Below, piece after piece: positions 7,285 through 33,000 of a DNA stretch of 64,000 nt. The first letter of the stretch is position 1. Each line of letters begins with the position of its first letter. The translations under genes and the position numbers were made by a program. Source of the stretch: Dipteris shenzhenensis (lineage: Eukaryota); assembly GCA_047967505.1 (NCBI GenBank), contig CM106538.1; one strand, written 5' to 3'. The notes under the pieces are model-generated. The model was given only the letters and a program-made list of their open reading frames with translations, was not told where the DNA came from and did no database searches.

Positions 7285-7285
7285 C

Positions 7286-7334
<49 letters not shown>

Positions 7335-7484
7335 CGGCGCAGGGGAAAACGGAAGGGTTGCAGGAAGCAACTCCTCCGTGATGGCAAACCCCCCCCTCCC
7401 CCACACACATACACCCACACACCCACACCCACACACACACGCGCACACACCCACACACCCACCCACACCCACACCCACGCCGCC

Positions 7485-7515
<31 letters not shown>

Positions 7516-7520
7516 ACATA
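7285..7520. repeat. Poly-C/(CA)n microsatellite tracts enclosing a duplicated ~55-bp 5' stub of element A
   Basis: C-runs and CA repeats; AGGGGAAAAC.GAAGGGTTGCAGGAAGCA.CTCCTCC.TGATGGCAAA occurs at ~7236 and ~7341. Confidence 0.9.
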
Positions 7521-10692: not shown

Positions 10693-10694
10693 AG

Positions 10695-10706
10695 TGGTAT
10701 CAGAGC
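10695..10706 (+). promoter_or_regulatory. Primer binding site (tRNA-iMet)
   Basis: TGGTATCAGAGC 2 nt after the 5' LTR. Confidence 0.95.
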
Positions 10707-10715
10707 ACGGTTTCG

Positions 10716-13700
10716 ATGGCAGACAACGAGGCAATTATGAAGAAACTAGAAATACAAGATTCATTGATTTGAAGGCTAACCATGGAATTAAACAGATTGT
10801 CCAAAGGAAAAGACGTAGCGGATGATGGAGCTAGTAGTGGTGCTGCTGGCAGAAATTTAGAAGATGAAGAGGTCTATGTCGAGCTTGGTGCCGGGGTACC
10901 GAGCCGAAGGAGATAAAGAGGTGAGGAAGATGTTGCCGAAACTGCTCTTTTGCAAGTTTTTAAGAAAGCGAAACTCTCTGAATTTGATGGTGAGAAGAAG
11001 ACCGGGGAAGATTTGGAAGTGTGGCTTGAAGAACTTGAAGATTTCTTTGCCCTACGAGAGTTTGATGAAGCGGGAAAGGCTAAGATCGCGGCACTACAGT
11101 TACGTGGAGTTGCAAAACTATGGTGGAAGTCGCATGTGCAAATCCGACAACGTCAAGATCAACCCATCACATGGGCTGAATTCAGAACTGCAGCTGAAAA
11201 GAGGTATTGTTCTCCACATTATTATATGGAAAAGAAGATGGAGTTCTATAATTTTAAGCAAGTACAAGAGGGAAAACATAATCTATCTGTGGATGAGTAT
11301 AAAGAGAAGTTCCTGCGATTACATAAGTACGCACTGTGATGGGCTGAATTCAGAACTGCAGCTGAAAAGAGGTATTGTTCTCCACATTATTATATGGAAA
11401 AGAAGATGGAGTTCTATAATTTTAAGCAAGTACAAGAGGGAAAACATAATCTATCTGTGGATGAGTATAAAGAGAAGTTCCTGCGATTACATAAGTACGC
11501 ACCTGAGGTCACAGGTGAAGCTCTTACTCATAAATTTGTGGAAGGGCTTAAGGAAGATCTTTTATATATGATGAAAGGAACAGGATCAAGTGATTTCTTG
11601 GATGCTGTGGCTAAGGCCGAAAACTTTGAAAAGATGGAAGAATATAACCTAAGAAAGATAGCAAAATCAAGGTTCATTCCAACAGGTCATTGTCTTCAAG
11701 GGTCACAAGGTTCAGGTATGCCTCAACGAAAACCTGATTATTCAAATATGCCTAGATTTCAAGAGAGGAGTAGCCAACCTGGGTACAATCAAGTGGGAAG
11801 GCCAAATAACCGAAATCAGAATCAAAATCAAAATCAAAGAAATAAAGGAGTTTCAAATAAGAAAACCCAAGAAAACGCACCTTGGAAAAGTGATTCAGAG
11901 TTTATTGAACGGGCAAGAAGATTGGGATTATGTTTCCGATGTGGTGAGCAAGGTCACCGAACATTTGAGTGCCCGAATAAAGCAAAATTTAATTTTATGA
12001 AAGGACCAATGATGGGAGCAAAGACGAATTAGACGAATCCAACCATCGACGAAGCGGTGGACAAAGGTATGTGCTTGGAACCTTTGAAATGTATGGCATC
12101 TTCCACAACTCATATGCATGCGTCTGTGATTAAAGTGATGGGGAAAATTGGGAATCAAAACATAAGTTTTCTTATTGACTCTGATAGCACTCATTGTTTT
12201 ATATCCCCGAAATTCCTTAAGACTCTAAACGTAGAAATTAGGGATCAAGTCAGAAGACCAGTCCAACTTGCTAATTGAAAATTACATTATACTCAAGGGC
12301 TTCTAGAAAATCTTTCCTTCAGTTTAGCACAGAGGAAGAGTAAGGGAGATTTTTATGTTATTGAGATGGGGAAGTGTGACGCTATTATTGGAATGGATTG
12401 GTTAAATGTAAACAAAGCAGTTATTGATTGTGGAGAAAGGACCGTTAGTTTTCTTAATGAAGATGGCAAAGATAAAATTATTCAAGGAGAAGAAAGAGAT
12501 AGTAAAGCTTCTCTCATATCAGCCATGAAATTGCTGCGAGGAGTAAGACAGGGCTGTGACACATTTCTCGTCTTTGTTGATAAGTTAAAGGAGGGAAGTG
12601 AAGATGAGACAGTACCACACTATGTTACAAAACTCCTTGAAGAATTTTCCGATGTGTTTCTTGATGATTTACGTGGGATGCCACCGCCTAGACATCTTGA
12701 CCATGCTATAGAGTTAGAACCAGGCACAAGTCCTTATTGTCGGGCTCCCTATAGATTTAATGTGGATGAACTAAAGGAGTTAAAGCTTCAACTGGATGAC
12801 TTGTTAAAGAAAGGGTTTATAAAGGCTAGCGTTTCTCCTTGGGGTGCTCCAGTCTTATTTCAAAAGAAAAAGGATGGAACTTATAGGCTTTGCATTGACT
12901 ATAGAGGATTGAATCGGCATACTATAAATAATAAATACCCTCTACCTCACATTGATGAATTGTTGACTCAATTGAATGGTGCCACAGTGTTCTCTAAAAT
13001 TGATTTGCGATCTGGTTACCATCAGATTCGTATTGAGGAGGAGGAGGACATTCCTAAAACTGCTTTTAGAACTCGCTATGGCCATTATGAATTTACTGTG
13101 CTTGCTTTTGGCTTGACCAATGCACCCGCTACCTTCATGTGTCTAATGAATGATGTATTCCGTGAGTATTTAGATAACTTCATTCTGGTTTTCTTGGACG
13201 ACATTTTTGTACATTCCAAGAATGGGGAACAACATGAACAACATCTAAGGAAAACACTTGAAAAGTTACGGGAGCATAAACTTTATGGGAAAAAGAGCAA
13301 ATGTTTCTTCGCTAAAGACAAGCTTGTGTATTTGGGTCGTGTGATTTCAAAAGATGGTATTCATATTGATCCTGACAAAGCAAGGCTTATTTCGGAGTGG
13401 CCTAGACCGAAAAATGTAAGGGAGGTAAGAGGCTTTATTGGCTTAGCACAATATGAGAGAAAACATATCAAAGATTTCTCAAAAATAGCCTCTCCACTTA
13501 CTGATTTGACAAAACTTGACAAGCAGTTTATATGGACGGAGAAGTGTCAACAAGCTTTTGATACTATAAAAGACAAAGTGGCTGAAAATTATATTCTCAA
13601 GATACCCGAGATGGGTAAACCTTTTGTAATGACATGTGATGCTAGTGGTACCCGACTTGGATGTGTACTTTCTCAAGATGGTCGTGTAGTGGAATATGAG

Positions 13701-15507
13701 TCTCGAAAATTAAGGAAGCATGAAGAGAACTATCCCACGCATGATCTCAAATTGGCTGCCGTTGTTCATGCATTGAAACATTGGAGACACTTTCTACTTG
13801 GTGTAAAGTTCGAACTTCGAACAGATCATGAAAGTTTGAAGTACCTCTTCACTCAACCATTATTGAATAATAGGCAAAGAGGATGGATGAATCTTCTTTC
13901 CGAGTATGACTTTGAGATTAAGTACATTGAGGGAAAGGAGAATAGGGTGGTTGATGCTTTAAGTAGAAGACCTTTCGTGAATGCCATCACCCTTATTCGT
14001 TCCGATCTTGCAGAAAACATTAGAAATGAACTTGAACATGATGTTTTTTATGCACCTATTCTTCAAAAGATTGCTCAAACACCTTGTGAAAAGATTGAAG
14101 GAAAATTTCATTTGGTGAATGGTAATTTATATTGCCATGATAGACTTTGTGTACCATGTGATTCACCTTTGAGATGGAAAATCTTGTATGATTGTCATGA
14201 TGCTCCATTTTCGGGACATGTTGGATATAACAAAACATACAGCAAGGTTCGAAAATCATTTTATTGGCTTGCACTAAAGCGTGATGTTCGTCGTTATGTC
14301 CAAGAATGCTTACAATGTCAACAAGTGAAGGTGGAATAACATAAGATGCCTGGTAAGATGCAACCTTTGGATATACCTTTCAGGAAGTGGGAATCAATAT
14401 CCATGGGTTTTATTACTAAACTACCTATAGCTCGAGGGGGATATGATACCATTTTTATCGTCGTTGATCGTTTTACCAAAATGGCACATTTCTTTCCTAT
14501 GAAAAAGACTGATGGTGCTCTTGAGGTAGCTAAGTTGTTTGTGAAAGAAATTTTCCGATTGCATGGGATGCCTAAAAGTATTGTGTCAGATAGGGATTCC
14601 AAATTTACTTCTCATTTTTGGAAGGCCACATTCAAAGCAATTGGGACGGAGCTTAAGATGAGTACAGCTTTCCACTCACAAACAGATGGAGAAACTGAAA
14701 GGGTTAATCACGTACTTGAGGATATGCTTCGAATGTATGTTAATGAGAAGGAAACAAATTGGACAGAATTCCTATCCTTAGCCGAGTTTGCTTATAATAG
14801 TTCCTGGCATAGCTCCATTCAAATGTCTCCATTTGAAGCCATGTATGGTCAGAATTGCCACACTCAATAGTTCCTGGCATAGCTCCATTCAAATGTCTCC
14901 ATTTGAAACCATGTATGGTCAGAATTGCCACACTCCTGTGAATTTTTCGGATCCTCAAAATAGAGTCGAAGTGTCTAGACAAATGCTTGAGAGAATGGAT
15001 GAGGAAGTGAAACTGATTCGGAAGAGCATTCAAAGAGCACAAGACAGGCAAAAGCAATACTATGATAAGAAGCGGTCTTTCCGTGAATTTCAGATTGGGG
15101 AGATGATATTTCTGAAAGTAATACCTAAACGCAGTAATCTAATCCTTCGGAAGGATAGAAGGCTCGCACCTGGTTTCGCAGGATCTTTTAAAATCTTAAA
15201 GAGGGTGGGAACGCTTGCATATCAACTTGAACTGCCTGAGAACATAAAAGTGCATCCTGTTTTCCATGTCTGTCTATTGAAATCTTATGTTGCCAACCCA
15301 ACTCATATTTTGCAGGACAAGTCTAGGATCATGGAGGATGGGACTTTGAAAGTCGAACCTGAATATATATTGGATAGGAACACGAAGCGGCTTAGGAATA
15401 GAACAATAGAAGAAGTTTTGGTTAAGTGGGATGCTTATCCTGTAGAAGATGCTTCATGGGTAGACTTAGATGCCTTACTTACTGAGTTTCCTTCATTTAA
15501 ACTCTGA
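10716..15507 (+). pseudogene. gag-pol polyprotein with chromodomain integrase, disrupted
   Basis: One frame from ATG 10716: gag zinc knuckle CFRCGEQGHRTFEC, protease LIDSDSTHCFI, RT VFLDDI, RNase H CDASG, integrase SDRDSKF, chromodomain VLVKWDAYPVEDASW. Interrupted by in-frame stops and two tandem duplications. Confidence 0.95.
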
Positions 15508-15534
15508 GGACAGAGTTCCTGAAGAGGGAACGGA

Positions 15535-16464
15535 TGTGACGCTCCAATTTTGTATATGAAATATTTTGAAATATATATCATAGATAGTGTTCAAAAAGGA
15601 TGGTTTTGATGTTTTGAAGGTTTTGAGAAAGTTTGGTGTTGGTCGAAAAATTTTGGTTTTTGTCCACTATGGTGTCGGCTGGATTTTGCGGCTTGATTTT
15701 GAGTTGGTTAGAGAAATAATTTGAAGAAACTTTGTATGAGAGAGTTCTAGATCTTGTTGGGTAGAAAAACTTTGTCCTAGTGAAAAATTTGTGGTTCACT
15801 CGTTTGCATGCTTGTATGGAGGGCAGAAGTTGCTAACAAAGTGGTTTTGAGCTAAAAGAGCATCTAGATTTCCGTGTCAGGAGTTGCAGGCATTAGACGG
15901 AGGTCGAGATGGAAGAATTAGCCATGAAAGGTTAGATGCAAAGGGAAAGAAGAGGGCCCGATCTTCGAGATGAGCTATTGAGCTTGTCCATTGGATCTAC
16001 GAGGCAGGCGTGGTGATGCTCCGAACAGGGCTGTTTTCATGCCTTTAAAAAAAAAAAAAAAGAGACGTTGAAATTCCGTACGCGTTTGCTATTATAAGCG
16101 CACGCTAAAAGCAGGTGAAAAGCACACGCACGTTTTTCGAGAAAAGCTGATTTTGGAGGTTTTTGGCGGCTTATTTTGGAGGCGTGAAAGGCTATAAAAG
16201 AAGAGGAGATCGTGAGAAGTAGAACACACAATCCAACGCACGCATATCGAGGCTGTACGAAAGAGAAGAGAAGGCACGCATCTTGAGGTTGCTCGAGCGA
16301 AAACAAGGCACGCATATCGAGGTGCTGCGAAAGTGACAATAGCGCATGCAAATCGAGGCAGCGCAAAGAAGAAGATACGATCAAGATATTTTGAGAGTGA
16401 GAGTGAGAGTGAGAGTGTGATTGAGATTTGATCGTTTGATCATCTGATTTGAACATCTTCATGC

Positions 16465-16496
<32 letters not shown>

Positions 16497-16666
16497 TAGC
16501 TCGGGGGTGGACGGGTGGTATCGAGCTCCTTCACGGAGTGATTCTTCTCCGAAATTATTGTAAAGACTCATCAGTTTGATTCATACTGCAATCTCTCTTC
16601 TTTGTCATTCGTGATTATTATCTTGCTACAATTTTGATCGTGATTGTGAAAGAACGGTGCCTGACA
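15535..16666 (+). repeat. 3' LTR of the gypsy element, preceded by PPT GAAGAGGGAACGGA (15521-15534)
   Basis: Direct repeat of 9559-10692. Confidence 0.97.
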
Positions 16667-16693: not shown

Positions 16694-18620
16694 TTTTTTT
16701 AGTGAAACCATATATTTCTGTGTGGGAAACCCCAGAAGAGGTAAAAACCCACCATATAGTACAAAAGTAAAAAGTTTTACAAGTAGGCCCCTTGAAAAAG
16801 CCAGGTAGCTAACCGGAAACTAGAAAAGTGAAAATAATCACAAATCACCAGGGGAGGCATCTAGTAGGATATCCACCACTGTGAGATTATTTGCTTGCAA
16901 AAACTGTTGTAGAGGAACCAGGCAGCTAACTGGAAACTAGAAAAGTGGAAATAATCACAAATCACCAGGGGATGCATCTAGTAGGATATCTACCACTGTG
17001 AGATTATTTGCTTGCAAAAACTGTTGTAAAGGAACCACATCTCCATCAATAAAATGAAGGTATTTTTTACCTTTGTGATTCTTCTTGAGATCTCGAAATT
17101 TTTGAATCACAGGGTTAAAAACCTGCCGCAACCAGGGATGGAAAGAGTCCAAAGAAAAAGTAGAGGCAGGCACCAGATCCGTCATGGATGAGGAAAAGTA
17201 GTATCCAGTCCAAGAGAAGTATCCATATTAACAACCACAGTCTGAGTAGCTTGCTCTTGCAAATCCACAGTTGGTTCCACAAGGGCATCATGAGCTCGAT
17301 CTGAAGAAGAAAGATCCACATGTTTATGTTGCTCTGGCAAATCTGTATTCTCATCACCTGCATTATGTCCATCTGAAGGAGATATATCGACATGTAACTC
17401 AAAAGATTGTAATTCAGAGACCGGAGAAGGTGGGCGAGACTCCACTCCTTCAAAATGAGACTGCTGAATTGAAACTATCTCTGGAGGGTCAGCAACATGA
17501 AAGGGAGGATATACTGATAGAGAAGCTTTCTCTTGAGGATGGACCCGTTGCCATTCCTTTTTGTGTTTATGCTGGTCTAACTTAACTAAATGGAGAGGAG
17601 GAGAAACTTGAGGGAAAGGCAAACTGTTGTGAGATTGAGGTAAGAGCAAGGGGCAGCACCGAGCTGCCTACATTTATAACACGCATTTGGGAAAGAAGCA
17701 AACTTCAGAGGAATGCGGAAAGGATGCACCATACCAAAATCAATATCCAAGCAGGAAGGTATAGGTTGCTCCATATCCAAAGTATGCAAACACGGATATC
17801 TCTCTTCAGAACTAGGAAATCTTGCTTCGGGAGATGCAGAATCTTCCCCAACAACGCTGCGATAGAGGAAATATGTGGGAGAAGAGGTATCGGCAATGCT
17901 TTGAAAGTAACCCAGACTGGGCAGTAATGCATGAGGTTCTTTGCCGGGTCAAAAAGAGAGTCCCATGGCATAACATAAGCAAAAAAGCCTGCACCATGGA
18001 CCCTTGCCTGATTTACCAAACTATACACTGTCTCCACATCAACACAGCGAGCAAAGTAGAAACCTTTGCCCAAAAAAACAAAAGAAATAATTCGATTAGG
18101 ACCAACTGCTGCAGAAGACCACGCACGCAACTGAGAAGGAAAGAGGATACGTCCCATGAAGTAGATGCAAATTCCGAATTGCTGCACTTCAGAGAGACTC
18201 TCAATAAGCGAATCTGGAGATTGAGCCCGATTTAGTAACAGACCTGAATTGACCATCTCTGAAACTGAGTCTTCACACAGCCGTCGAAGCAGGTCCCGTT
18301 GCAAGGAAGTAGAAGAACTGTGGCTGTTATGAAGCTTAGGCTGAGAAGATACAGAGAAAGAAACGTGTTTCTTTCTTGCGACAGAAGCAGGATTTGACCG
18401 AAAAAGAAACGGAGCGGCGACGGCTGGCGATGGGTTTACGGGACCAAATGGAGCTTGCGAAGTAGAAGCAGAAAGCTGCCAAGGAACATCTGAAGGTTGC
18501 GAAGTAGAAGTAGAAAGCTGCAAAGGAACGGAGGTGGGCTGGCGTGAGGCAAAGGAAGACGAAAAGGACATAGGCAACGAACGGGAGGAAACATCGAGTT
18601 CCATCTTTCCCTTTCTACCT
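16694..18620 (-). mobile_element. ORF1-only LINE-like element, copy C
   Basis: T-run 16694-16700. ORF 17705-18628 has a DUF4283-like region (FLGKGFYFARC, YVMPWD, CPVWVTFKALP), followed by CYKC and the shared C-terminal domain (16955-17185). ATG at 18604. Confidence 0.82.
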
Positions 18621-18875
18621 GCACACACACTTTTTTTTTTGTGAGAAGAAATATTTTATTGCTGTAAAAGAATTACATTCATAGTTATTGCAAAAGCGAA
18701 GTAACTACTACTCCACTGAAAATCTCAGTATAAGCTATATATACATCATGATCAATCAAATGAGTCTGAAAGCAATCATAAAATGATTGCCGCAGAGATT
18801 GTCTGAAAAAAACAAAAGATGGAGAAGTAGGATCACCAAAGACTCTATGATTTTGTCCATCCATAGAGTCCACAG

Positions 18876-21825
18876 TGTTGGTAAACTGAAAGGAAAGCAT
18901 GGAGTGAACACAAACTAAGAATTCTTGCTTATGGAATGAAGAAAGGTGAGGTCCTTAAGTAGGCACCTCTTACATGATCACTGACATCATTGATGACCTC
19001 TGAGCTCCACAATCATCTCCTCAATCTGCTCCTAGATTCTCTCAATCATCCTATGTGGCTTCTACCACCACCTAATAGTGCTGATGGGCACCTAATTGTG
19101 CCTCTAGCACACACACATAGAAACCAAGGTGTGCCTGGGGCATACACCTTGAGATATCCCAACATACCTCCCCTCAAGGGAATGCCTCAGGCTATGTCAA
19201 GGATACAGTTAGCACAAGGTGTCACATGCCATCTCATGGTGGTCATGGATCTATCAATGGCTAGGATCTCAAGCTAGCAAGGGTTCCCATGGGTGTAAGG
19301 TAAACAAAAGGGATACAAAAGACCTTCCAATGGTTATCTCCCCTTCGTGTACATGCACACAATGTCTGCAGGAGGTACAATGGAGCAAAAACACTTACAC
19401 ATGGCCTACATCATATGGTGACCAGAGGTGTTTACAAAACACACAATAGTTTATTTCATTCATTTTGGGAGGACTATCCAGGCTGAGTACCTTGACTCAA
19501 CAAAAAAGAGAGATCTGGAGCATACATGGAGATGATTCAAAAAGCATAATCTTCATAGGATGCCTCATCTTGTGGAGGCACATCAACTGAAAGTAGATTG
19601 GCATTTTCTGACTTTGAAGTTGCTTCCTTTTTGGCTGTACAAAACTTTTCATGATGATTGTTCTTGCCAACAGTGTTTGCATGGATTGATCTTGAAGCAG
19701 TCTTTTGAGAGGTGATTAGTCTTCCCACAATGATTGCAAGGTGAAAACTTGCCCTTTTGGATTTTTATGGCATAGGCTGTGTCATTTCCTTTCCGGAGTT
19801 CCATGTGCCTTTCTTCTTCTTGAAGAGCAGAGATAAGACCTTCAAGATTAGGATTAGGAAGATTTTTCAAAGTGGTAACAACATGATCATAATCTTCAGG
19901 CATACTCTTGAGCAACACTGCCATAGCATCATCTGTAGTGTTAGGAGAGTTGATAGAAGCAAGTTGAGGCATGAGACTCCACATGTAATTGACATGGGCA
20001 GCCAAAGGAGTGCCACTAACCATCTTCAATTCAAAGAAAGCAATCTTAAGTGACAATTTTGAGATGTGAGAGCTAGCACCAAAAATAATATCAAGCTTCT
20101 GCCAAGCTTTTGAAGAAGACTCTAAGTCAGAGATGTGATGAATATAGTCATCTCCTAAGGCAAGAGCAATGATGCCATAGGCTTTCTCCTCTCTAGCAGG
20201 ATCTCTTGCCAGGTGTGTCGGAGTTGAGGATTCTCCAGCATTGGAGGCTGTTGAAGAAGAAGTTGAAGCCGGTTTCACAAGCCCCCAGAGGTTTTCCCTC
20301 ATTAATGCAAACTTGACCTTCATGTGCCATGTGTGGAAACCCTTACCATTGAACTTATCGATATTCAAGATGGTAGCCATGAGGGTCTAACCCAGAATGG
20401 GCAGTGTCTACCTCTTACAAGGCAAGAAAGAGTTGAAGAGCTTCAAAAAACAAGCATTTAGAGTAGCAAAGGCTTGCAACCAAAATCCATACTACAAACC
20501 AATGATGTTTTCACTTGCATGCTTCATAGAGGTGACTAAATGAAAGTATTCCAAGCAAATCCAGGTATAGCAACTTAAAAGAAAGTTGTAGCCACAGTTG
20601 TACTGATGCTTTTCAAAATTTTAAAACCTTAGAAATGCTAAAGTAGCATCTAATGTAGCATCACACTCACAACCTTGCCAAAACTGTCCAAAACAAAGGC
20701 CTGAACTTGGAGGGCTTGTATCTCACTCTTCAAAGCAAAGAAAAGAGGGCTTTCTGAAGCAAAAGAAAGCTCATATACCAGAGAAGATTCAGCACAGAGG
20801 TTGGGCGAAATGGCGTGCTGTTTTGCCCGGGGGAGTTGCTGCAGGCTGAACCTGAGTTTTGACGATTTCTCATTTGTTATTGAACCAAATGAGCTGAAAA
20901 ATGACTCAAAATGTTCGTCTTGAGGTCGCCCATCTACTCCTAAGAGGGCTCAAGCAATGGTGCAGCAGGCAGGGAGTATTTTGCAATAGAAGAATGAGGA
21001 AAAAATGCGCTGTTTGGAGAATGGCAGCCAGCAGAGACGTTTTTTTTTCAATTTCTTGCAGGTGGAGGTTCGCCCAAACGAGGGGTATCTCCAGCAGGAA
21101 GGGCTTGGAGAATGGCGGAGAATTGAGGGAGAACAAGCTTTAGCAAGATTTGGGAAGAAAGAGAAGAAATGGTGAAGATGAAGAAGAAGAAGATGGAGAA
21201 GAAGATGATGTGGCACAAGTGGGCTCAAGGAGGATCAAAGTGCTCTGATACCATGTTGGTAAACTGAAAGGAAAGCATGGAGTGAACACAAACTGAGAAT
21301 TCTTGCTTATGGAATGAAGAAAGGTGAGGTCCTTAAGTAGGCACCTCTTACATGATCACTGACATCACTGATGACCTCTGAGCTCCACAATCATCTCCTC
21401 AATCTGCTCCTAGATTCTCTCAATCATCCTATGTGGCTTCTACCACCACCTAACAGTGCTTATGGGCACCTAACTGTGCCTCTAGCACACACACATAGAA
21501 ACCAAGGTGTGCCTGGGGCATACACCTTGAGATATCCCAACATATATCTCAAGGTGTATGCCCCAGGCACACCTTGGTTTCTATGTGTGTGTGCTAGAGG
21601 CACAGTTAGGTGCCCATAAGCACTGTTAGGTGGTGGTAGAAGCCACATAGGATGATTGAGAGAATCTAGGAGCAGATTGAGGAGATGATTGTGGAGCTCA
21701 GAGGTCATCAGTGATGTCAGTGATCATGTAAGAGGTGCCTACTTAAGGACCTCACCTTTCTTCATTCCATAAGCAAGAATTCTCAGTTTGTGTTCACTCC
21801 ATGCTTTCCTTTCAGTTTACCAACA
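18876..21825 (-). mobile_element. Non-autonomous gag-only Ty1/copia element carrying an extra inverted LTR
   Basis: 3' LTR 18876-19164, 5' LTR 21254-21542, PBS (GCTCTGATACCA 21242-21253), PPT adjacent to 19165, inverted LTR 21544-21825; TSD CACAG at 18871-18875 and 21826-21830. Confidence 0.93.
19537..20380 (-). pseudogene. Copia gag with two zinc knuckles (frameshift in the second)
   Basis: IDKFNGKGFHTWHMKV, AYGIIALAL, LLKSMPEDYDHVVTTL, CNHCGKTNHLSKDC; no pol downstream. Confidence 0.88.
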
Positions 21826-23906
21826 CACAGTGCCCAGTAGCGCACCCAAACAAAAAATAAATCAAAATCCTGTAGAGCTGGATGAAAACCAAATAACCAG
21901 AAGAACTTGCTAAAAGTAACAGTAGGAAATCTCGCTCGAAGTCCCTGTCGAATGAGAGCGAGGAAATCACAAGTGTGTGGACAGTGCCAAAAGATGTGAA
22001 GCACAGAGATTCACCAGGATGTAGACATTTGTGGCAAACAGTCGAAGCAATATTTCTATGCGCGAGTAATTGCCCAAATGGAAAAATGCCAAGTAGGACT
22101 CGCCAAAGGAAAAGCTGTTGCCGAAGAGGGACTTTATAATGCCAAAGGAGATGCAGCCGCTTTCTCCACCACTTTAGTAGGCAATCCATATGCCAAACAG
22201 AATTTGCTCTGTCAGAAATCCAAGGCGGAAGCAACAACACTTTATACATAGAAGGCACTGTGATATGTGAGAGCTTCAAAGGACGGGCTGAAGAGGAAGA
22301 AGAATGTAGAGTCCAATCCTCAAGCCTATCTTGACGTTCCAAACGAGGTACCGGCAAGAAAGGTTGAAGCATTTCGAAAATTTTATGCCATAAAGGACGA
22401 TAATGAGCTCCCAAACCATATTTGCTAGCAGCAGTAGAAAAAGATAAAAGAGTGCCATCATCCTGAAGTACATCCGCCATAGAAGAAATGCCTTTGAAAG
22501 ATATAAAATAAGAACGCCTGGGTTCTTGTATAGCCAAAGGAGGGTGGAATACTTTGGACCAATAAATACTCTCAGCCCTCAAGGAATTTCCCGACAAAGA
22601 ATCCCTGCCATGCCATTCTAAGTGGGATAAAATATGCTTCCAATCAAGAAGCAAACGAGAGACAAAAGGGTAGTCTCTGATCTTGCCTTGAATAGAGCCA
22701 AATAGAAAATCCCACTGTGTAGGCTGCCAATGTCCAAAAGTAGAAGTATCAATATGCAACAAAAGAGAGCGGATCATGAAAGCCCAAGGCTGATCCCCTT
22801 GCATAAACTGCAACATCATTTTAACCCTGTGAGCAAGTATATACATTTGAATATTGAGTATGTTCAGACCCCTGTGCATCTTTGGAGAGCATAGAATATG
22901 CACAGAGAGTAATCTGAGACTTTTCTTGCCATTTTTTGAACACCAGAAAATCTCCATGATAGCAGACATAAAGGAAACCAGATCTGCCTTAGTGAACATG
23001 ATGAGAGGCAGAGAGAATTCTATGTAAGCTATTAAAATGGATTGCGTTATTCGCAATCGAACATGTAATGGCCAAGTTGTAAGCTTCCAAGGCCACAAAA
23101 GACTTTGTCAGTCTTTAGCATGCAACGGCAGTAGCTTTGATTTCTGAAAATTGACATGAAGACCAGCAGCCAAACCATAGGTAGAAAGAGCCTGCATAAT
23201 CATGGAGAGATCGCTTTGAGTATTTTTTGGGGTAAAGAAAGAATCATCAGCATATGCTTGAGCGATCATGCTATGGCTGCCAGGAATTTCCAATCCGTGC
23301 AAAGGTGGTCCATATATTGAAGCATTGGATGAGTGGCTATGGCAAATAGTAAAGCACTGAGGGGACATCCTTGCCGAACAGAACAACCAAGAGTCCAGGT
23401 TGTAGAAATATCCCCTGAAAGTATGCAGGCAGCTTTAGTATCTTGATATAGCCAATTGATAACTTGCTGCATATTTATGCCAAATCCCAAGGCCTGCATA
23501 GTTAATGAAATAAAGTCCCACTTAACAGTATCAAAAGCTTTGGCAATATCAACTTGCAATAGCAAAACATCCTGCTGCTGCATATATTTGGCATATTCAA
23601 TTCCAACATAAGCATTAGCAATGTTATCTGTGATATGCGTACGAGGAACAAAACCATATTGCGCAGGATGCAACCCATCATGTAAATAGCCTTTTAGCCG
23701 ATTAACAATCATTTTGGTAGTAAATTTGTAAATGACTGGCATAAGCGTGATAGGTCTCCAATCAGTCAAAGGTTCACAAATTTGCTTTTTTGGAAGGAGT
23801 TTAACAAGACCTCTCTTCCATGTGTCTGGCATTTTTTGTTTTAACCCTCTTGGCATAAGCCAAGCCTTGTTGACCAAAGTGACCACGCTCTGGCCGAAGT
23901 TAGCTC

Positions 23907-25563
23907 TGTAATGCTCTTGGCCTAAGCCGAGTCTCCCTAACCGGAGTTAGGCTTATTTAACCGGAGTTAAGTATCTTTGACCGTAGTCAATACTTTGACC
24001 AATAAAAGATAACTTTTTTGAATATAATTAAATAAATGAAGAACTCTCTAATTATGATCAAATAAATGGAATTTGAACTTTGACTTGGAATATTTACAAC
24101 TTGGTCACATGTTGCCTTTTTTTTGTTGCTCCACGTGCATGTGTAAGGTCCTCATCGACATAAATAAGCTTGCCTTCAAGGTGGCCCTCTTTGTCAAGAC
24201 AACATGTCTTGTTCCTTGCATCATAGCTTCCATCCTCTTCATGTGCTCAGACATTTTTATTTTTATTTTTTCCGAAAAAACAGTGCTGATTATATTACTT
24301 CGAAAACAAGGTACATGAGGTCAGTTTTGCAGCTGACGGGGCTGCGTTCACAAATCGGACGCAGCCCTAAAAGGAAACAGAAAGCTCTCTCTCATGGAGG
24401 GATCAGGCGAGTGTGAATGAACAGCCAGAGAGGTGGTGAATAGCGCCACTGAAGGCCCTGAGAAGTATGCTCGAAGAAGAGGCCCTGCGTATCCCAATCA
24501 CGGAGGAAATGTCTCCGCTTCTCCCGGCCAGCCCGGGAATCTCCCTATATCTGGTCCCACTGGCCTCTGAGTGTGTGTATAATCTCACTCTAGATGTCGG
24601 TCATGACCTGGGCAGTCGAAAGAGAGGTGCCACCGAGGATCTGCGCGTAGCGCGAGGTCCAAATGTGCCATCCAGCGATGCTGCTAATAATCTCCCAGAC
24701 TGGCTGCCTCTCCTGAGATCCTGTGTCAGCCTCTGCCAGGTGCGGCGGAATGCCCTCTAGCGGCCCCTGCTCAGACATTTTTATGTATGTGTGTGTCTAT
24801 GATTATATTGTATTTGTCTTTAGTGTTGTTGCTCAATTGATGCTCCACCCATTCAGCTCATTGTATCTGGTTCTTTCAGTCCCATAGACCCTTTGGTCTT
24901 TCAAAGACTTTTAATAATCTTTCTTTCTTGTTCTTTCTTTCTTTCTACTTGACTATATCAGGGGTTTCTCCCTTGAGTCATCTTTCCCCGATCTCTAGGC
25001 ATTTCAACCTGTTTGCTCTACTTGAAGCTTCCCATGCATGAACTAATAGTAAGCTGGTGATATCATCCTTGATCCTCACCACTTTGAGGTTATGAGCCTT
25101 ATTTGATCTGTGGATCTCCTTTTGAAAGTTGTTTTAGATTGCCATGGAACTCCTTGTAGGACTACGTAGGTGCTGCCATAGGCTGTAGAAGTAGGTCATG
25201 TGGGTCGTTTGTTGCAGAGCCAAGAAAGACCAGGATATTGTGCAGGTAAATAGCCTATTATAGGCTAGAGAAGCTGACTAGTTGGCAGTGCCATTTGGCA
25301 GTCCTATACAGGGTCAGGTACAGGTGGACCCATTACACTCTAGATCAGGTCAGCCCAACCCTAAGCAGGTTGGGCTGATAGACTGGCCAGTTGGCCAGGG
25401 CCCAATAGAGGAGGGGTACTTCCCCTGTACAAGGCCTCATTATGGAGGCTATCATGAGTTCAGTTCAGAAGTATCACTGTGGAGCAACACTTGATACATA
25501 CATACAGCCAGTAGGAGAGCACATGTGTGCAGGGGGGGTGGCGTCTAAGAAACTCGCACTACA
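23907..25563 (+). repeat. Probable orphan LTR containing a LINE insertion
   Basis: Termini TGTAATGC...GCACTACA; followed after 2 nt by TGGTGATTAAAGC, which resembles a decayed iMet PBS. No second copy. Confidence 0.4.
24261..24767 (-). mobile_element. 5'-truncated L1-type LINE 3' end with 17-bp TSD
   Basis: TGCTCAGACATTTTTAT at 24244-24260 and 24768-24784; T-rich tail at the left end; translation contains WHIWTSR and the C-terminal QWRYSPPLWLF. Confidence 0.8.
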
Positions 25564-25592: not shown

Positions 25593-28472
25593 GCCAAAAG
25601 ACTTTTACCTTGCAAGTAACGGAAGATGTGTTTTACAACCTGCCAATGCATAATCTTTGGGCTGTGCATATACCTGAGAAACTGAAAACTGAATATCAAC
25701 TCGTGTATTGCAGAGATAAATGAGGCATCCAACAGCCTGGCTATAGAGTGTGACATCAATTGATTCACCGGCATCATGCATTGTAAGCTTCAGCCCCGGC
25801 TCCATGGGAGTGGACATAGGCTTGCAATCATGCATGTTGAATCTGTCCAAGAGCTTTTGAACATACTTGGACTGAGACATAACAATGCCACATTTTTCTT
25901 GAATAAACTGGATCCCCAAAAAGAAATGTAACAAGCCCAAGTCTGACATATCAAATGTAGCTTTCAATTGGACTTTGAAATCTGCAATTACTTCCTCATT
26001 TGATCCGGTGAGCAGCATGTCATCTACATAAAGAATGATGACCAAAATATCCCCCCCATCCTTCTTGATGTAGAGGGTGCTCTCAGTTGGACTATTGTGC
26101 AGCCCCTTGCTGGTTAGAAAGGCATCAATTTTTGCATACCATGCACGTGGGGCTTGTTTCAGCCCATACAAAGCTTTATTCAGCTTGCATACTTGGTGTG
26201 TATTTCTTAAAATTTCAAAGCCCGGAGGTTGTTTGACATAAACCTCTTCCAACAAGTCTCCATTAAGGAAAGCTGTTTTAATGAACATTCCATTCAAAAT
26301 TTGCAGCCATTGCTATAACTGACTTGATGGTGGTCATTCTGGATGTAGGAGCAAAAGTCTTCTCATAATCTATGCCCTTTTTCTGAGCATATCCTTTTGC
26401 AACCAGCCTTGCCTTGTACCGATCAATGGACCCATCTGGCTTTCTTTTGACTTTGAAAACCTAACGTGTACCTATGGCATTCTTACCTGGTGGCAAATCC
26501 ACGACATCCCAAGTCTGATTTTTATGAATGGACTGCAATTCATCGTGCATGGCATTCATCCAATGCACATTATCCTTTGCTTCTTCAAATGTCTCAGGCT
26601 CCTCCTCATCAAGAAGAGTACCTGCATAAGTTGATTCAATTGAAAGAGCCCCTCCCCCCCCCGTGTGCCTTACTGCACTACGAGTTTTGCCAGGCAATGG
26701 AGCCTCAAGCTTACTCTCCCTGAGAGTCTGAAGCAACCAATGCGGGACTGTTTTGGCTGCGTGTATCTCTTGAATTTCTTGCCTGACAACTTCATCCACA
26801 CCCTGAGGTTGTACTAATTCAGCTGGGGCTGAATCTATACATGTGGATTTGGGGGAGGTTGCTGTAAATCGGGGGAACTAAATGCTATAGGAAGCATCCC
26901 CTCAAACACATCATGTGAAGAGGCTGGAATCTGAAATTCAGCATGTGTATGTGCAGAATTTTCAGAGAATATAACATCTCTACTAACAAAAATCTTGCGT
27001 GTAGCAGGATTGTAGAGACGATAGCCTTTGCTTTGTGAACTATATACCACAAAAATGCATGCTGCATTTATACCTCTACCCCTGCCTCCAGCTGTAGGAG
27101 TGATAGGTGTAGTAGCTGTATCTGGTCTTGCTTCATCCCCATTGACATAATCCCAAAGATGTCTGCCAACCAAGATATTGCGAACCATGAAACTCCACAA
27201 GGAGTAGTTAGTGCCATCCAACTTATCCTCCTGTGTGAGAACCCCGAACACCTCATTGGAGTTGACTTGAGCCATTTGTACCAGAAAATAAAAAAAAATA
27301 CAGCAGACTGACCAAGTGAAATTCCTTCCTGGGATATAAAATGAACAAGTAAAATCTGCAAAGAAAAAGCTGCCCACAGTGACAAATACTGTCACAGCCT
27401 GTCAAAGGCTCAGAATGCACTTCAATTGCCCTGAGAGCATAATGTCTGCAATGTCACTCAAAATGAGTCCAAAATTGCCTGCAAACTCCCAAATTGGTTT
27501 TTCACTGCAAAATTGCAACCCACTTGCAAAAACCCCAATTTCTTGAGAAAAATTGCATCCAAAAGAGGACAAATTAACTGAAAGCCCTGATTATGCAAGA
27601 AATCGTAGTGCAAAACAGAAGCCCCAAATTTTGGGGAGAAATTGAGCTAAAATTGGGGCAAATTCTCAAAAAACCCCAAACTTTATAAAAAAAGGCCCAA
27701 ATTTCTCCAAATGTGGTCACAATTGCCCACAGAACTCCTTGAATACACAGCCAAACAATGGTTCAATGCAAAAAAATGTCTACAAGCGTCGATTGTTCAA
27801 GCATCGTGTCGAGCCAAGTACGGCCACACGTGCGGTGCAGTTGTACGGTCGAATCTGCAGGTACGGAATGCGAGTGGGAACTTAAGGTTGCACGGATGTA
27901 CGGACTGAGCGCACGGATGTACGGACTGTGTTGTACGGAAGCTGCTGCAATGTTGTATGGCGAAATTGTCGATTCGTACATTGTATGGACTTCAAAGTGT
28001 ACAGACAAATGTTGCACCGGGTACTTGTACGGAATGGCAGCACAGGCTGGTACGAGGCAATACGAACGAAGTGACGCGTGCAGTACAGAAGTTCGTACGT
28101 TGTACGGTGCACGTACAATTGGTTGTATGGACGACAAGTTGCTAGACGACGAGTAGGAAGAGCTTGCGGGCAAGGAGCAGGGAGCTGGGTAGGAAGCTAG
28201 GAGTAGGGCTGGAAGTAGTGGCTCTGATACCAAATGTGAGAGAGAGGAGAGTGAGAGAGCAAGAGAGCTGAACGTAACGTTGCAATAGATGAAGTAAAGT
28301 AGTACAAGAAGTGGGAAAGGTTTTGTCTAAGTGACAAAACCTTATCCTTCACTAACCGTAGTTAGTGAACTAACTGTGGTTAGGGGGAAAAACCTCAAAT
28401 GAGGGAAAAGTGCCCCTAACCTATTTATAACATTACATTGGTCACTGCTAGAATATAATAATAATTCTAATA
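25593..28472 (-). mobile_element. Ty1/copia element: 5' LTR, PBS, internally deleted gag/integrase, RT; 3'-truncated
   Basis: LTR 28235-28472, PBS 28221-28232, gag start KLDGTNYSLW, RT motifs LYGLKQAPRAW and YVDD. Same family as 30100-34095. Confidence 0.92.
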
Positions 28473-30099: not shown

Positions 30100-33000
30100 T
30101 CTCAAAAACCCAGGGGGTGCAAATCCTCTCACTTTTCATGAGTTGATAGGACTTCTGCTTCAGGAACAGCAGACCAGGGAAAACTTGGCTTCACGTGCAG
30201 GTGAACAAGCTATGCTCTCAAAGTTTAAATAAAAAACAAAGGGGCAGGCAAAGACATCAGTAAATCAGCCTTCCAGTGGGTCAGGACAGGCTTCACAAAA
30301 GGCTAAAAATGATGCAAGTAAGCCCAAGAAGAAGGGTTTTTGTCACTACTGCAAAAAGCCAGGTCATCACATTGTAGAATGCAGGAAAAGGCTTGCAAAA
30401 GAGAAGAAAAACAGCTCCGGTATGGCTGTTTCAGATTCAGCTCCTCATGCATCTGACAGTGGGGATGCTGCAGCCAACTTTGTTGGACAGCATTATGCCT
30501 TTTTATCTTGCATTTCAGATTCTAGGCTGGCTGCTCCAGATGCTCGGGATAGTACAGCCACTTGTAATGATGATACATATGCATTTTTGACTCGCAGTTA
30601 TGACTCTTCTACGGATGCATCTGCTCTCAGTGTCAATGAAACATTGAACACTTGGTATTTTGACATCGGTGCATCCAAGCACATCACTTCTAGGAAGTGT
30701 CTTTTTACTTCCTTGCATCCACCTCCTATTGGTAAGAAAGTCACTTGTGCCAATAACTCATCATATTCAGTACGTGGCACAGGAAATGTTGAGCTTACTG
30801 CCATTGATGGCTCAATTTTCAAACTTTTAGATGTTTTATATGTGCCTGGTATAACCAAAAATCTTCTTTCAGTGTCCACTCTTAACAGAGATGGATTTCA
30901 GGTCATCTTTGAGGATGACAAATGTGCTGTCCGAGACAGGGAAGATGATTATGCCTTAAGATTATCTGGTACTCTGCTGCGTGGGCTTTTTCAGCTTGAT
31001 CTTTTTGAGAAAAGAGCAGCCCATGCTCTTGCAGTTTCTACCCCTACTGCTGCCATGTAGAATGCAGAATTATGGCATGCCCGATATGGCCACATGCATA
31101 CCAACAGCTTGATGACACTTTAGAAGCATTCCATGGTTGATGCATTGCCACCTCTTGAGATACCTCCTCCACATGCCTGTGAAGGGTGCATTTTAGGCAA
31201 GATGCATAGATTCCCCTTCAAAAAGGATGGTTCAGTTAAAGCTGTCCGCAAATTACAGCTTATACACAGTGATGTCTGTGGTCCCATGAGGACTCCATCA
31301 TTGGGTGGTCATCTCTACTTCGTTATCTTTATTGATGATTACTCCAATTTCACTTGGGTCTTTGGGCTGAAGCGCAAATCAGAAGTGTTCACTCAAGATA
31401 CAGACATTGCGCACAGATAGAGGTGGAGAATACTTGTCTACAGATTTTGATGCTTTTCTGAAAGGCAAGGGTATTGTGCATCAGCTCACAGTGAGGCTGA
31501 CCCCTCAGCAAAATGGCAAAGCTGAGAGGAAAAATAGAACTCTCATGGAGATGGACAGATGTATGCTGAAAAGCAAACACATGCCTCACAAATTCTGGCT
31601 TGAGGGTCTAATGTGTGCCAATTACATTTTGAATCGGGCTCCCACTAAGGCTTTAAAAACAAAAACTCCCTATGAAGTCTGGAATGGGAGAAAGCCTTCA
31701 GTGGATCATTTCCGAGTCTTTGGATGCCTTGCTTATGCTCATGTGCCAGTTGAATTTAGGCACAAGTTGTCAGATAAAGCCATTACGTGCATATTTGTTG
31801 GGTACAGTGCAGAAAGCAAGGGGTACCGTCTCTACAATCCTACTACACGCAATATCATTGTCAGTAGAGATGTGATATTTGCTGAAAATTCAGCTCACAC
31901 TCAGGCTGAATTTCAAATGCCTTCTTCTTTAGAGGATGTCTTTGAGGGGTTGCTACCCATTGCCTTGGGTTCCCCTGCTGATATTTCTGATGCAAATCAG
32001 AATTTACAGCCACCTCCCGATGCTTTAATTCCGCCACAGGATGTCTTGCCACCTCCACGGGCAGTGGAACAGGTGGTGCAGCAAGAAATTGCAGACATAC
32101 ATGCAGCAAAAACAGTCGTAAACTGGCTGTTACAGACTCTCAGGGAGAGTAAAATTGATGCTCCGTCACCTGGCAGGACTCGCAGTGCAGCAAGGCACAT
32201 GGAAGGTGCTAATTCAGTGGAATCAGCATATGCAGGTACTCTTCTTGATGAGGAGGAGCCTGCCACATTCGAAGAGGCAAAGGACAATGTGCATTGGATG
32301 AATGCCATGCACGATGAGTTGCAGTCCATTGAAAAAAATCAGACTTGGGATGTTGTAGACTTGCCACCAGGTAAACATGCCATTGGCACACGATGGGTTT
32401 TCAAGGTCAAACGGAAGCCAGATGGCTCCATCGACAGATACAAGGCAAGGCTGGTTGCTAAAGGCTATGCTCAGAAAAAGGGCATAAATTATGAGGAGAC
32501 ATTCGCTCCTACATCTCGGATGACCACCATCCGATCAGTTATTGCAATGGCTGCACATTTTGAATGGAATGTTCATCAGTTGGACATAAAAACAGCCTTC
32601 TTAAATGGAGACTTGCTGGAAGAGGTGTATGTCAAACAACCTCCACGCTTTGAAATTACAGCAAATGCACTTCAAGTATGCAAGCTAAACAAAGCTTTAT
32701 ATGGGCTGAAACAGGCCCCTCGTGCATGGTATGCCAAGATTCATGCCTTTTTGACCAGCAAGGGGCTGCACAATAGTCCTACTGAGAGCACCCTCTACAT
32801 CAAGATGGATGGGGGGGAAATTTTAGTCATCCTTCTTTATGTCGATGACTTACTGCTCACAGGGTCCAATGAAGACAAAATTGCAGATTTCAAAGCTGAT
32901 TTGCAAACCAACTTTGACATGTCAGATTTGGGGCTGCTTCACTTTTATTTGGGGATCCAGTTCTCTCATGAGACACGTGGCACTGTTATGTCTCAGTCCA

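Follow-up and report, generated by a model that had tools for sequence, protein, structure and literature searches.

Architecture of the insertion

The window analysed here is a stretch of 64,000 nucleotides from contig CM106538.1 of the Dipteris shenzhenensis assembly GCA_047967505.1. Within it lies a 2,950-bp insertion in which a long terminal repeat (LTR1), an internal region, a second LTR (LTR2) and an inverted third LTR (LTR3) follow one another, all inside one target site duplication (TSD) (Table 1). The two-LTR carrier makes up 2.67 kb of this unit. LTR1 and LTR2 form a direct repeat of 98% identity (18876-19166 and 21254-21544), and blastn aligned nucleotides 1-289 of LTR2 to 18876-19164 with 98.3% identity. 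Both have the termini TGTTGG...CCAACA, i.e., TG...CA ends with short terminal inverted repeats.

The extra LTR lies in the opposite orientation directly beside LTR2, with its U5 terminus at 21825 and its U3-terminal nucleotides absent. Together the two LTRs form inverted arms of 282 nt each (21254-21535 and 21544-21825) that are 100% complementary and only 8 nt apart. Folding of the 572 nt as single-stranded DNA gave one hairpin of -372.4 kcal/mol, an energy matched by 0 of 100 shuffled sequences (z = -56.8).

Table 1. Features of the three-LTR insertion and its host LINE, by position in the window.
Feature	Position	Strand	Remarks
Host LINE ORF2 frame continued past the insertion (LWTLWMDKII...)	18759-18875	minus	39 codons until stop
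Left TSD, CACAG	18871-18875	.	Read directly from the sequence
LTR1 (3' LTR), 289 nt	18876-19164	minus	U5 terminus at outer end, 18876
Internal region, 2,089 nt	19165-21253
Putative polypurine tract	19165-19175	minus	Purine run ending GAGGGGAGGTA; directly upstream of 3' LTR (LTR1)
gag ORF	ATG at 20380 to stop 19649-19651	minus	Only recognisable coding region of the element
Putative primer-binding site, TGGTATCAGAGC	21242-21253	minus	Directly downstream of 5' LTR (LTR2)
LTR2 (5' LTR), 289 nt	21254-21542	minus	U3 terminus at 21542
Unpaired centre, CCCAACAT, 8 nt	21536-21543	.	7 terminal nt of LTR2 plus T
LTR3 (extra LTR, opposite orientation), 282 nt (283 including T 21543)	21544-21825	plus
Right TSD, CACAG	21826-21830	.	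Read directly from the sequence
Host decayed LINE ORF2 (RT domain, zinc-binding tail, several frameshifts)	21831-23946	minus	Upstream of the insertion

The carrier element

The gag frame encodes 245 aa and matched PF14223 (Retrotran_gag_2) with an E-value of 1.8e-28 and 99.6 bits, against a cut-off of 27. A zf-CCHC match within it reached 20.0 bits, slightly under the cut-off of 20.8. Twelve gag homologues were identified at E <= 1e-10, the best of them 86% identical and 284 aa long, and gag-only relatives of 273-292 aa were located on short contigs. Searches of the internal region found none of the pol domains (protease, integrase, reverse transcriptase (RT), RNase H), and the two other internal ORFs tested matched no Pfam family. 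As the element is without pol, RT and integrase have to be supplied by a partner, and it is therefore non-autonomous. These data indicated that the carrier is a gag-only, non-autonomous LTR retrotransposon of the Ty1/copia type. No second copy of its family was found in the window.

The primer-binding site presumably matches the 3' end of initiator tRNA-Met; no tRNA gene was found in the window. The polypurine tract is a candidate by its position and purine content. Since the primer-binding-like site, the purine tract and gag are all on the minus strand, both outer ends of the insertion are U5 ends.

In its coding content the carrier resembles the TR-GAG elements (terminal-repeat retrotransposons with a GAG domain), reportedly described by Chaparro et al. 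in 2015, which are said to be short LTR elements with gag as the sole ORF. The likeness is limited to the carrier and is irrelevant to the inverted LTR. We also considered a DIRS-like retrotransposon, a class characterized in published abstracts by a tyrosine recombinase, the absence of a TSD and inverted repeats as normal termini. This was rejected on the TSD, the copia gag, the putative primer-binding and polypurine sites, the two direct LTRs and the lack of a recombinase ORF.

Target site and host LINE

CACAG lies directly outside TGTTGG... on the left and ...CCAACA on the right, and a match of 5 nt at such fixed positions has a chance of ~1e-3. The TSD flanks the three-LTR unit and not the two-LTR core. 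The surrounding DNA is a decayed LINE ORF2, with an RVT_1 match at 23266-23946 (E 6.6e-22) and a zf-RVT match at 21812-23107 (E 8.8e-5) that was under the cut-off.

A virtual empty site, produced by excising 18876-21830, was compared with the 134 LINE ORF2-like proteins found at E <= 1e-3. Five of the 134 aligned without gaps across the joint at E <= 0.03, the best joint-spanning alignments having values of 2e-19 and 2e-35 (summed). For example, the host sequence ...FFVWVRYWA/LWTLWMD (the slash marking the joint) aligned with ...LFWVRYWALWTIWSD of the homologue P0028. The conserved LINE frame at the joint differs from the frame of the long 431-aa ORF. Because LINE ORF2 homologues align gap-free across the excised joint, the whole 2,950-bp unit can be treated as a single insertion.

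Together, these analyses confirmed the anatomy described in an earlier note on this DNA. Its LTR-internal-LTR order with an adjoining inverted LTR was recovered by repeat comparison, and its 282-nt arms around an 8-nt loop contained no mismatch. The single CACAG duplication around the whole unit, the resumption of the LINE ORF2 on both sides and the assignment of U5 to both outer ends were likewise upheld. The note spoke of a copia element; the element is not a full copia, being gag-only and non-autonomous.

The LTR2-LTR3 junction

The junction reads CCCAACA-T-ATATCTC and contains no CACAG. LTR2 is intact up to its terminal CA at 21542, and LTR3 ends exactly with ...CCAACA at 21825, beside the TSD. 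The T at 21543 may be counted as the first nucleotide of LTR3. Joining two complete LTRs bluntly by their U3 ends and removing 6 nt (GTTGGG) gives exactly this centre and explains the T at 21543 as well, and the centre may have been shaped by deletion of these 6 nt from such a join. Natural cDNA termini are found at all three free boundaries of the extra LTR. At the U3 and U5 ends of the LTR the outer 6 bp are the same, TGTTGG(G) and TGTTGG(T), respectively. In addition, CCAACA, CAACA and AACA each occur once within LTR3, at its outer end.

Divergence among the three LTRs

LTR1 differs from LTR2 at 5 of 288 compared positions and from LTR3 at the identical 5 positions, whereas LTR2 and the reverse complement of LTR3 have no differences (0/282). 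This contrast between the identity of the arms and the divergence of LTR1 had been overlooked in the earlier note. The transitions in LTR1 (4/4) are all of the C-to-T type at CWG cytosines, the sites being C/G in both LTR2 and LTR3 and T/A in LTR1. As CWG accounts for 18 of 131 G/C positions, the chance of 4/4 is 3.6e-4.

Under a model in which the three LTRs are of the same age and have undergone no conversion, the 5:0:0 pattern has P = 0.004. Because the pattern is so improbable under that model, an explanation has to include either gene conversion or a third LTR of younger age. The asymmetry fits long-term correction between the arms of the palindrome better than a very late duplication.

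Origin of the inverted LTR

The reading we favor, to which we assign a probability of roughly 45%, is that the integrated molecule was a head-to-head cDNA product carrying a U5 end on either side, and that its arms then underwent gene conversion. Starting from the anatomy, TSD, host continuity, termini and LTR differences observed at the locus, we infer the following steps. The C-terminal portion of the LINE ORF2 would have received a gag-only element in minus-strand orientation, and the cDNA of this element would have been aberrant, with a second LTR joined U3-to-U3 onto the 5' LTR in place of the free U3 terminus. This could have come about if RT finished the minus strand and continued along another LTR template of minus polarity to its 5' (U5) end, a route in which the strand opposite the extra LTR would still have to be completed. 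Alternatively, the U3 ends of two cDNAs could have been joined, where the second copy either was an LTR alone from the start or shrank to a solo LTR afterwards. Both routes would give a molecule with a U5 terminus on each end. Since TGTTGG forms the outermost 6 bp of the U3 end and of the U5 end alike, integrase would find its usual end sequence on both sides and could perform an ordinary concerted insertion that duplicates 5 bp once. Following integration, 6 bp would have been lost from the centre of the near-perfect palindrome, and gene conversion would have held the arms identical while the distant LTR1 gathered changes by deamination of methylated cytosines.

Concerted integration via two U5 ends is familiar from in-vitro work, and its occurrence in vivo is assumed here. 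Published excerpts attribute TSD-flanked three-LTR complexes to template switching before integration (PMC1950507; 10.1101/452573), describe Ty1 cDNA multimers formed before integration (PMC5371812) and report that RT extends DNA on unintended DNA templates, e.g., by self-priming (PMC6088434). Counted against the head-to-head cDNA is that gene conversion has to be assumed as an added process, and that the case consists of a single locus. The earlier note had suggested an aberrant fold-back cDNA, or two head-to-head cDNAs of which one was later reduced to a solo LTR, and an aberrant cDNA with two U5 ends does stay the best single explanation. Simple self-priming by a folded-back 3' end of the minus strand, however, does not fit the register of the junction: the terminal CCCAACA(T) of LTR2 sits in the loop without pairing, and priming requires a paired 3' end. 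The junction is better matched by a blunt U3-U3 join of complete LTRs with a later loss of GTTGGG.

The main rival, which we consider rather unlikely though well ahead of the others, is a chromosomal fold-back duplication after integration of a normal two-LTR element with TSD CACAG. In this model a growing strand, in the course of replication or of the repair of a break, would have copied the end of LTR2, switched to the opposite strand and copied LTR2 backwards; the new CCAACA, complementary to the first 6 nt of the LTR, would then re-anneal to the identical CCAACA at the LTR2 end, and synthesis would proceed into the flank. Because the LTR has a 6-bp inverted repeat (TGTTGG/CCAACA), and CCAACA is unique in LTR3, such a copy could return exactly at the LTR boundary and leave the old TSD flanking the enlarged unit. 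The single TSD, which is part of the earlier note's reasoning, is not decisive, as a fold-back of LTR2 that returns by microhomology predicts the identical flank, so that the single TSD is no proof that a three-LTR cDNA was integrated. A recent origin of LTR3 by copying of LTR2 would also lead one to expect identical arms (0/282) beside five LTR1 differences, and the rival accounts for both flank and arms with no added assumption.

Inverted duplications templated by fold-back and guided by microhomology are documented at breaks in yeast (Yu et al. 2024, PMC11724301), and our locus resembles them in having an inverted copy beside the junction and a microhomology, here the 6-bp CCAACA. However, the insertions described there are mostly about 5-34 bp, against 283 bp at this locus, where the boundaries are LTR termini. 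A fold-back would also require the first switch to fall exactly at the LTR terminus, with a proximal microhomology of just 0-1 nt, and the T at 21543 would have to be untemplated and yet equal nucleotide 1 of the LTR. Furthermore, LTR2 carries 0 of the 5 changes (5:0 against LTR1, P = 1/32, with polarity taken from the CWG pattern), which is unexpected if LTR2 had long aged alone.

An assembly or sequencing artefact, in which the true locus is a normal two-LTR element and a chimeric or fold-back read, or else an error of polishing or of the graph, added the inverted arm, appears improbable. Long perfect palindromes are difficult to sequence and assemble, and perfect identity is what an artefactual copy would show. 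A fold-back read, however, would run back into the element, and would not stop after one LTR and resume the flank. The outer boundary is an exact LTR terminus followed by the TSD and then by host sequence that aligns across the joint, and the centre is asymmetric (8 unpaired nt, with 6 nt missing in one arm), unlike the symmetric fold-back of a read end.

Two independent insertions, the second of an opposite copy at the same 5-bp target followed by solo-LTR collapse and trimming of the junction, are highly improbable. Inverted tandems in Drosophila, e.g., a Rover pair with a palindromic target motif in its junction, are so ascribed in the excerpts of McGurk & Barbash (2018, PMC5932611), but such events leave a copy of the target in the junction, where we found no CACAG. 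Moreover, reaching the observed junction from CCCAACA-CACAG-TGTTGGG-ATATCTC would take two deletions, or a 12-nt deletion and an inserted T; CACAG is not palindromic, and the model further demands that the identical 5 bp were targeted again and that LTR3 was afterwards converted to the LTR2 sequence. Nested insertion into an existing solo LTR was excluded, there being no solo-LTR remnant or second TSD left of 18876.

Comparison with known complex insertions

Plant three-LTR complexes flanked by a TSD have been described (Sabot & Schulman 2007, PMC1950507; Zeng & Sun 2018 preprint, 10.1101/452573), and tandem LTR retrotransposon structures (PMC11899658) are likewise grouped with TSD-flanked complex insertions. 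In the excerpts of these three sources, the single TSD is read as formation before or during one integration, via template switching or cDNA recombination. The presence of more than two LTRs within a single 5-bp TSD is shared by our locus. The plant complexes in these excerpts, however, have all LTRs direct and two internal domains with a shared middle LTR (LTR-int-LTR-int-LTR), whereas our locus has a single internal domain and an inverted third LTR that adjoins the 5' LTR. Among the passages found of PMC11899658, the word "inverted" occurs in a reference title alone. Sabot & Schulman expect the outermost LTRs to be the most similar; here LTR1 and LTR3 have 5 differences and LTR2 and LTR3 have 0.

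The Drosophila inverted tandems resemble the locus in that LTR copies of the same family adjoin in opposite orientation. As excerpted, they consist of whole elements, head-to-head or tail-to-tail, with the target motif retained in the junction; in contrast, the junction at our locus lacks a copy of the target, one of the partners is just an LTR, and a single TSD surrounds the whole unit. The locus joins the known complex LTR insertions as an unusual, though not unprecedented, case.

Hairpin potential and significance

The perfect palindrome also invites comparison with Mu killer (Slotkin et al. 2005, as cited in the excerpts of PMC11624286), a natural inverted duplication of the terminal or regulatory region of a transposon. 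Our locus shares this structure, with perfect arms of 282 bp, and would give a long perfect hairpin if transcribed through. In their study of EVD, Trasser et al. (2024, PMC11624286) proposed LTR hairpins as silencing triggers and sought closely spaced sense and antisense LTRs as the trigger, finding none within the library insert size. The promoters of LTR2 and LTR3 would face apart, and a hairpin RNA would need read-through from outside, e.g., on the LINE strand. We regard as a long shot the full chain in which a two-U5 integrase event on a head-to-head cDNA concatemer created the perfect LTR palindrome in one step, conversion (possibly GC-biased) kept it error-free, and LINE read-through made it a hairpin "killer" locus against its own family.

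If an origin at the cDNA level is correct, the locus would be a fossil of a side product of reverse transcription or end joining that integrase still accepted. It would indicate that integrase in vivo does not need a U3 plus U5 pair when the terminal 6 bp are equal, and the TSD-flanked complex insertions, known so far in direct orientation only, would gain an inverted class. A broader lesson is that the terminal inverted repeats of LTRs permit a fold-back to return at the exact boundary; a shared TSD alone is therefore no proof of a single integration. The 5:0:0 pattern, being of the deamination type, offers a small natural test of mutual correction between palindrome arms in this genome. However it arose, a perfect LTR palindrome of 282 bp is what studies of the first onset of transposon silencing have sought, and the locus, combined with small-RNA and methylation data, could be used to ask if a natural LTR hairpin silences its family.

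Structure of the three-LTR unit

Analyses of the window sequence together with a repeat search bore out the coordinates of a three-LTR copia structure described in the earlier note, in which an inverted extra LTR (LTR3) directly follows a conventional element (see table). As the element lies on the minus strand, LTR2 is its 5′ LTR, with LTR3 joined to the U3 end, and LTR1 is its 3′ LTR. The unit therefore terminates in a U5 end on either side, as had been claimed, and the three-LTR observation is confirmed. The U3 and U5 ends share their outermost 6 bp (TGTTGG), which are followed by G or T. The chance probability of a 5-nt target site duplication (TSD) match at these fixed positions is ~1e-3.

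In the repeat search the arms contributed by LTR2 and LTR3 (21254-21535 and 21544-21825, 282 nt each) were 100% complementary and separated by an 8-nt spacer, CCCAACAT. As single-stranded DNA, LTR2 plus LTR3 (572 nt) folded into one hairpin of -372.4 kcal/mol, and none of 100 shuffles folded as well (z = -56.8).

Features of the three-LTR unit, its host LINE and neighboring elements
Feature	Coordinates	Strand	Remarks
LTR1	18876-19164		289 nt; window sequence and repeat search
LTR2	21254-21542		second LTR copy; window sequence and repeat search
LTR3	21544-21825		inverted LTR copy; window sequence and repeat search
TSD CACAG	18871-18875 and 21826-21830		abuts both outer LTR ends
gag ORF	19649-20380	minus	sole recognizable ORF; Pfam Retrotran_gag_2, E 1.8e-28
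Decayed LINE ORF2, RVT_1	23266-23946	minus	upstream of insertion; E 6.6e-22
Decayed LINE ORF2, zf-RVT	21812-23107	minus	E 8.8e-5, below its cut-off
Ty3/gypsy chromovirus	9559-16666	plus	LTRs ~1.1 kb
Copia-type pol region	25608-27401	minus	RVT_2, E 2.8e-58
Copia-type pol region	30233-33395	plus	RVT_2, E 3.7e-85

The insertion site in the host LINE

The earlier note had also stated that the host LINE ORF2 resumes correctly on both sides of the unit. The reading frame alone was insufficient to establish this: in the virtual empty site (the host sequence after in silico removal of the element and one TSD copy; 18000-18875 joined to 21831-23200), the frame of a long 431-aa ORF ran just 10 codons beyond the joint. 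A homologue search of the right-flank ORF was therefore undertaken. An exhaustive phmmer search with this ORF (425 aa) identified 134 relatives at E ≤ 1e-3, including 68 at ≤ 1e-10 and 11 at ≤ 1e-30, and superseded a search for homologues of the LINE C-terminus that had found none at E ≤ 1e-5 among 1,910 candidates.

When all 134 relatives were aligned to the virtual empty site by tblastn, 14 of 449 alignments extended 6 nt or more past the joint in both directions. Five of these had E values of 0.03 or less (relatives P0013, 2e-11; P0028, 2e-19; P0053, 2e-35, summed; P0127, 7e-17, summed; P0021, 0.03), and the remaining nine (E 0.89-8.8) were noise. The good alignments had no gap at the joint, with the host reading ...FFVWVRYWA/LWTLWMD (slash at the joint) against ...LFWVRYWALWTIWSD in P0028. 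Based on these ungapped alignments, removal of 18876-21830, that is, the element and one TSD copy, restores a conserved LINE motif. The 2,950 bp behave as a single clean insertion, with host bases neither lost nor gained.

A gag-only carrier element

Directly after LTR2 on the minus strand comes TGGTATCAGAGC, a putative primer-binding site for initiator tRNA-Met of the type common in copia elements, and a purine run, GAGGGGAGGTA, directly precedes LTR1. ARAGORN identified no tRNA genes in the 64-kb window. The zinc knuckle in gag scored 20.0 bits in Pfam, slightly under the 20.8 cut-off, and the other two internal ORFs tested matched no Pfam family. The internal region spans just 2,089 nt, which leaves no pol. 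With gag as its sole recognized ORF and no pol, this is a non-autonomous, gag-only, copia-type element, presumably resembling the TR-GAG class. A DIRS-type element was rejected because the locus carries a TSD, a copia-type gag and two direct LTRs and lacks a recombinase ORF. The leader between the primer-binding site and the gag start codon is unusually long (~860 nt; 20381-21241, minus strand), and neither of two ORFs tested in it matched a Pfam family. A further ~470 nt between the gag stop codon and the purine tract is non-coding.

Twelve gag relatives were identified at E ≤ 1e-10 among 268 candidates, every one on a short contig; the closest was 86% identical, and those with near-full query cover were 273-329 aa long. 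Blastn with the LTR, internal region and flanks found no further family copies in the window, where word-7 blastn returned only the three LTRs and two 16-17-nt chance matches (E 0.18 and 0.62). Similarly, tblastn with gag across the window returned only the self-match.

Neighboring repeats

The chromovirus has LTRs (9559-10692 and 15535-16666) that are 91-98% identical in blocks, and its gag, RT, RNase H, integrase and chromodomain ORFs are interrupted by frameshifts. Within it is a perfect 164-nt tandem duplication (11171-11334 / 11339-11502). Downstream of the LINE, repeated minus-strand ORFs at 5432-8444 and 16988-18655 encode zinc knuckles along with a DUF4283 domain at 17705-18655 (E 6.5e-9) and share blocks that are 64-77% identical (repeat families D5, D8 and D11); one element appears to be present here in several decayed copies. 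Tandem repeats, both short, lie at 18441-18524 (42 nt) and 16801-17034 (117 nt).

An inverted pair at 25672-27059 / 31788-33196 was considered as a second inverted-LTR case and rejected, as its arms (76-88% identity) are the opposite copia pol regions, with RVT_2 on both. A related third copia fragment at 285-897 matches 33066-33680 at 82-86%; all these are coding-region homologies unrelated to the gag-only element. Another inverted repeat (63305-63460 / 63845-64000; 156 nt, 89% complementary, 384 nt between arms) has a right arm that reaches the window end and may be longer.

Sequence differences among the LTRs

LTR1 and LTR2 differ at 5 of 288 positions (18917, 18990, 19076, 19083 and 19096). 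LTR3 is identical to LTR2 at 282/282 positions and differs from LTR1 at the same five sites. All four transitions fall at CWG cytosines, with C/G in LTR2 and LTR3 and T/A in LTR1; these cytosines account for 18 of the 131 G/C positions, and four of four would be expected by chance with P = 3.6e-4. This pattern is the apparent signature of deamination of CHG-methylated cytosines, and it polarizes the changes, placing derived bases in LTR1 and none in LTR2 or LTR3. The 289-nt LTR has no CpG and 18 CWG cytosines, a composition that, with the four transitions at CWG sites, suggests strong past CpG depletion and decay driven by CHG methylation. If three LTRs were equally old and had undergone no conversion, a 5:0:0 distribution would have a probability of 0.004 (0.012 for any one lineage), and 5:0 for LTR1 versus LTR2 alone one of 1/32.

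Origin of the inverted LTR

Among open-access papers and bioRxiv preprints, to which the search was confined, we found no description of an LTR retrotransposon that is flanked by a TSD and has a third LTR in inverted orientation. In known TSD-flanked complex insertions, all LTRs are direct and there are two internal domains (PMC1950507; 10.1101/452573; PMC11899658); the locus has the single TSD in common with that group and lacks one feature that defines it. Inverted LTR-retrotransposon tandems in Drosophila consist of whole elements with the target motif in the junction (PMC5932611). Inverted adjacency is shared with these, and here too one defining feature is absent.

The earlier note had proposed integration of an aberrant fold-back cDNA, or of two head-to-head cDNAs of which one was later reduced to a solo LTR. 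The anatomy behind this proposal stood, and the interpretation was supported in part; cDNA-level and chromosome-level origins are both candidates. Our tentative best reading, with a probability of roughly 0.45, is that the extra LTR was already present on the cDNA before integration. Each of the three free boundaries matches a natural cDNA terminus: LTR2 has its full U3 end, LTR3 has its U3 end apart from 6 missing nt, and on the other side LTR3 stops precisely at its U5 end. If two complete U3 ends were joined bluntly, head to head, the sequence would read ...GAGATATCCCAACA/TGTTGGGATATCTC..., and the actual center, ...GAGATATCCCAACA-T-ATATCTC..., is that join minus 6 nt (GTTGGG), so that the T at 21543 needs no separate explanation. 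Alternatively, this T could have been copied from the nucleotide that immediately precedes the LTR (the base after LTR1, 19165, is also T), or could be an untemplated base.

Such a cDNA could have arisen by two routes. Reverse transcriptase may have finished the minus strand and gone on along another LTR template of minus polarity, running off at its 5′ end, the U5 boundary; or the U3 ends of two cDNAs may have become joined to each other, after which the second copy was reduced to a solo LTR. Either route would yield a molecule with a U5 end on both sides, and integrase would meet the same 6-bp terminus twice and produce a normal 5-bp duplication. TSD-flanked three-LTR complexes have been ascribed to template switching or pre-integration cDNA recombination (PMC1950507; 10.1101/452573), and there is precedent for Ty1 cDNA multimers (PMC5371812) and for self-priming of reverse transcriptase on DNA (PMC6088434). 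In the observed register the terminal nucleotides of LTR2 stand unpaired, which led us to reject a simple snap-back in which the 3′ end of the minus strand primes itself. Integrase-mediated autointegration of the element into its 3′ LTR was also considered and set aside, its product being a circle and not a linear molecule able to integrate.

Given the identical arms, an origin at the cDNA level requires gene conversion between them, which would have kept LTR2 and LTR3 identical and would help to explain why neither carries derived changes. Gene conversion is plausible for arms 8 nt apart, going by other palindromes. A later chromosomal fold-back copy of LTR2, the main rival and less likely than the cDNA reading, accounts for identical arms without further assumption and leaves the original TSD flanking the enlarged unit. 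The terminal inverted repeat of the LTR would guide the strand back: within LTR3, CCAACA, CAACA and AACA are each found a single time, at the outer end, so a strand copying LTR2 backward would find its match in the CCAACA that terminates LTR2 only on reaching the LTR boundary. However, this requires an initial switch placed precisely at the terminus of the LTR, with a stray T, LTR2 has none of the five changes, and documented fold-back insertions are mostly 5-34 bp (PMC11724301).

An assembly artifact is improbable, as a fold-back read would not end its inverted copy at precisely one LTR and pick up again in the correct flank, and the palindrome shows asymmetry at its center. It is very improbable that two elements inserted at the same 5 bp and that one then became a solo LTR, the junction having no target copy of the sort expected from that route (PMC5932611). 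Nested insertion into a pre-existing solo LTR was rejected, as the sequence left of 18876 contains neither a remnant nor a second TSD.

Possible consequence for silencing

Rfam searches over the whole window found nothing, so that the hairpin matches neither a known miRNA nor any other RNA family. The two predicted LTR promoters diverge, and the element's own transcripts would accordingly be expected to form no hairpin. For the copia element EVD, an LTR hairpin was looked for and was not found within the library insert size (PMC11624286). A read-through transcript from the LINE strand would carry the perfect 282-bp hairpin, and an LTR hairpin of this kind has been proposed as a trigger of transcriptional silencing (PMC11624286).
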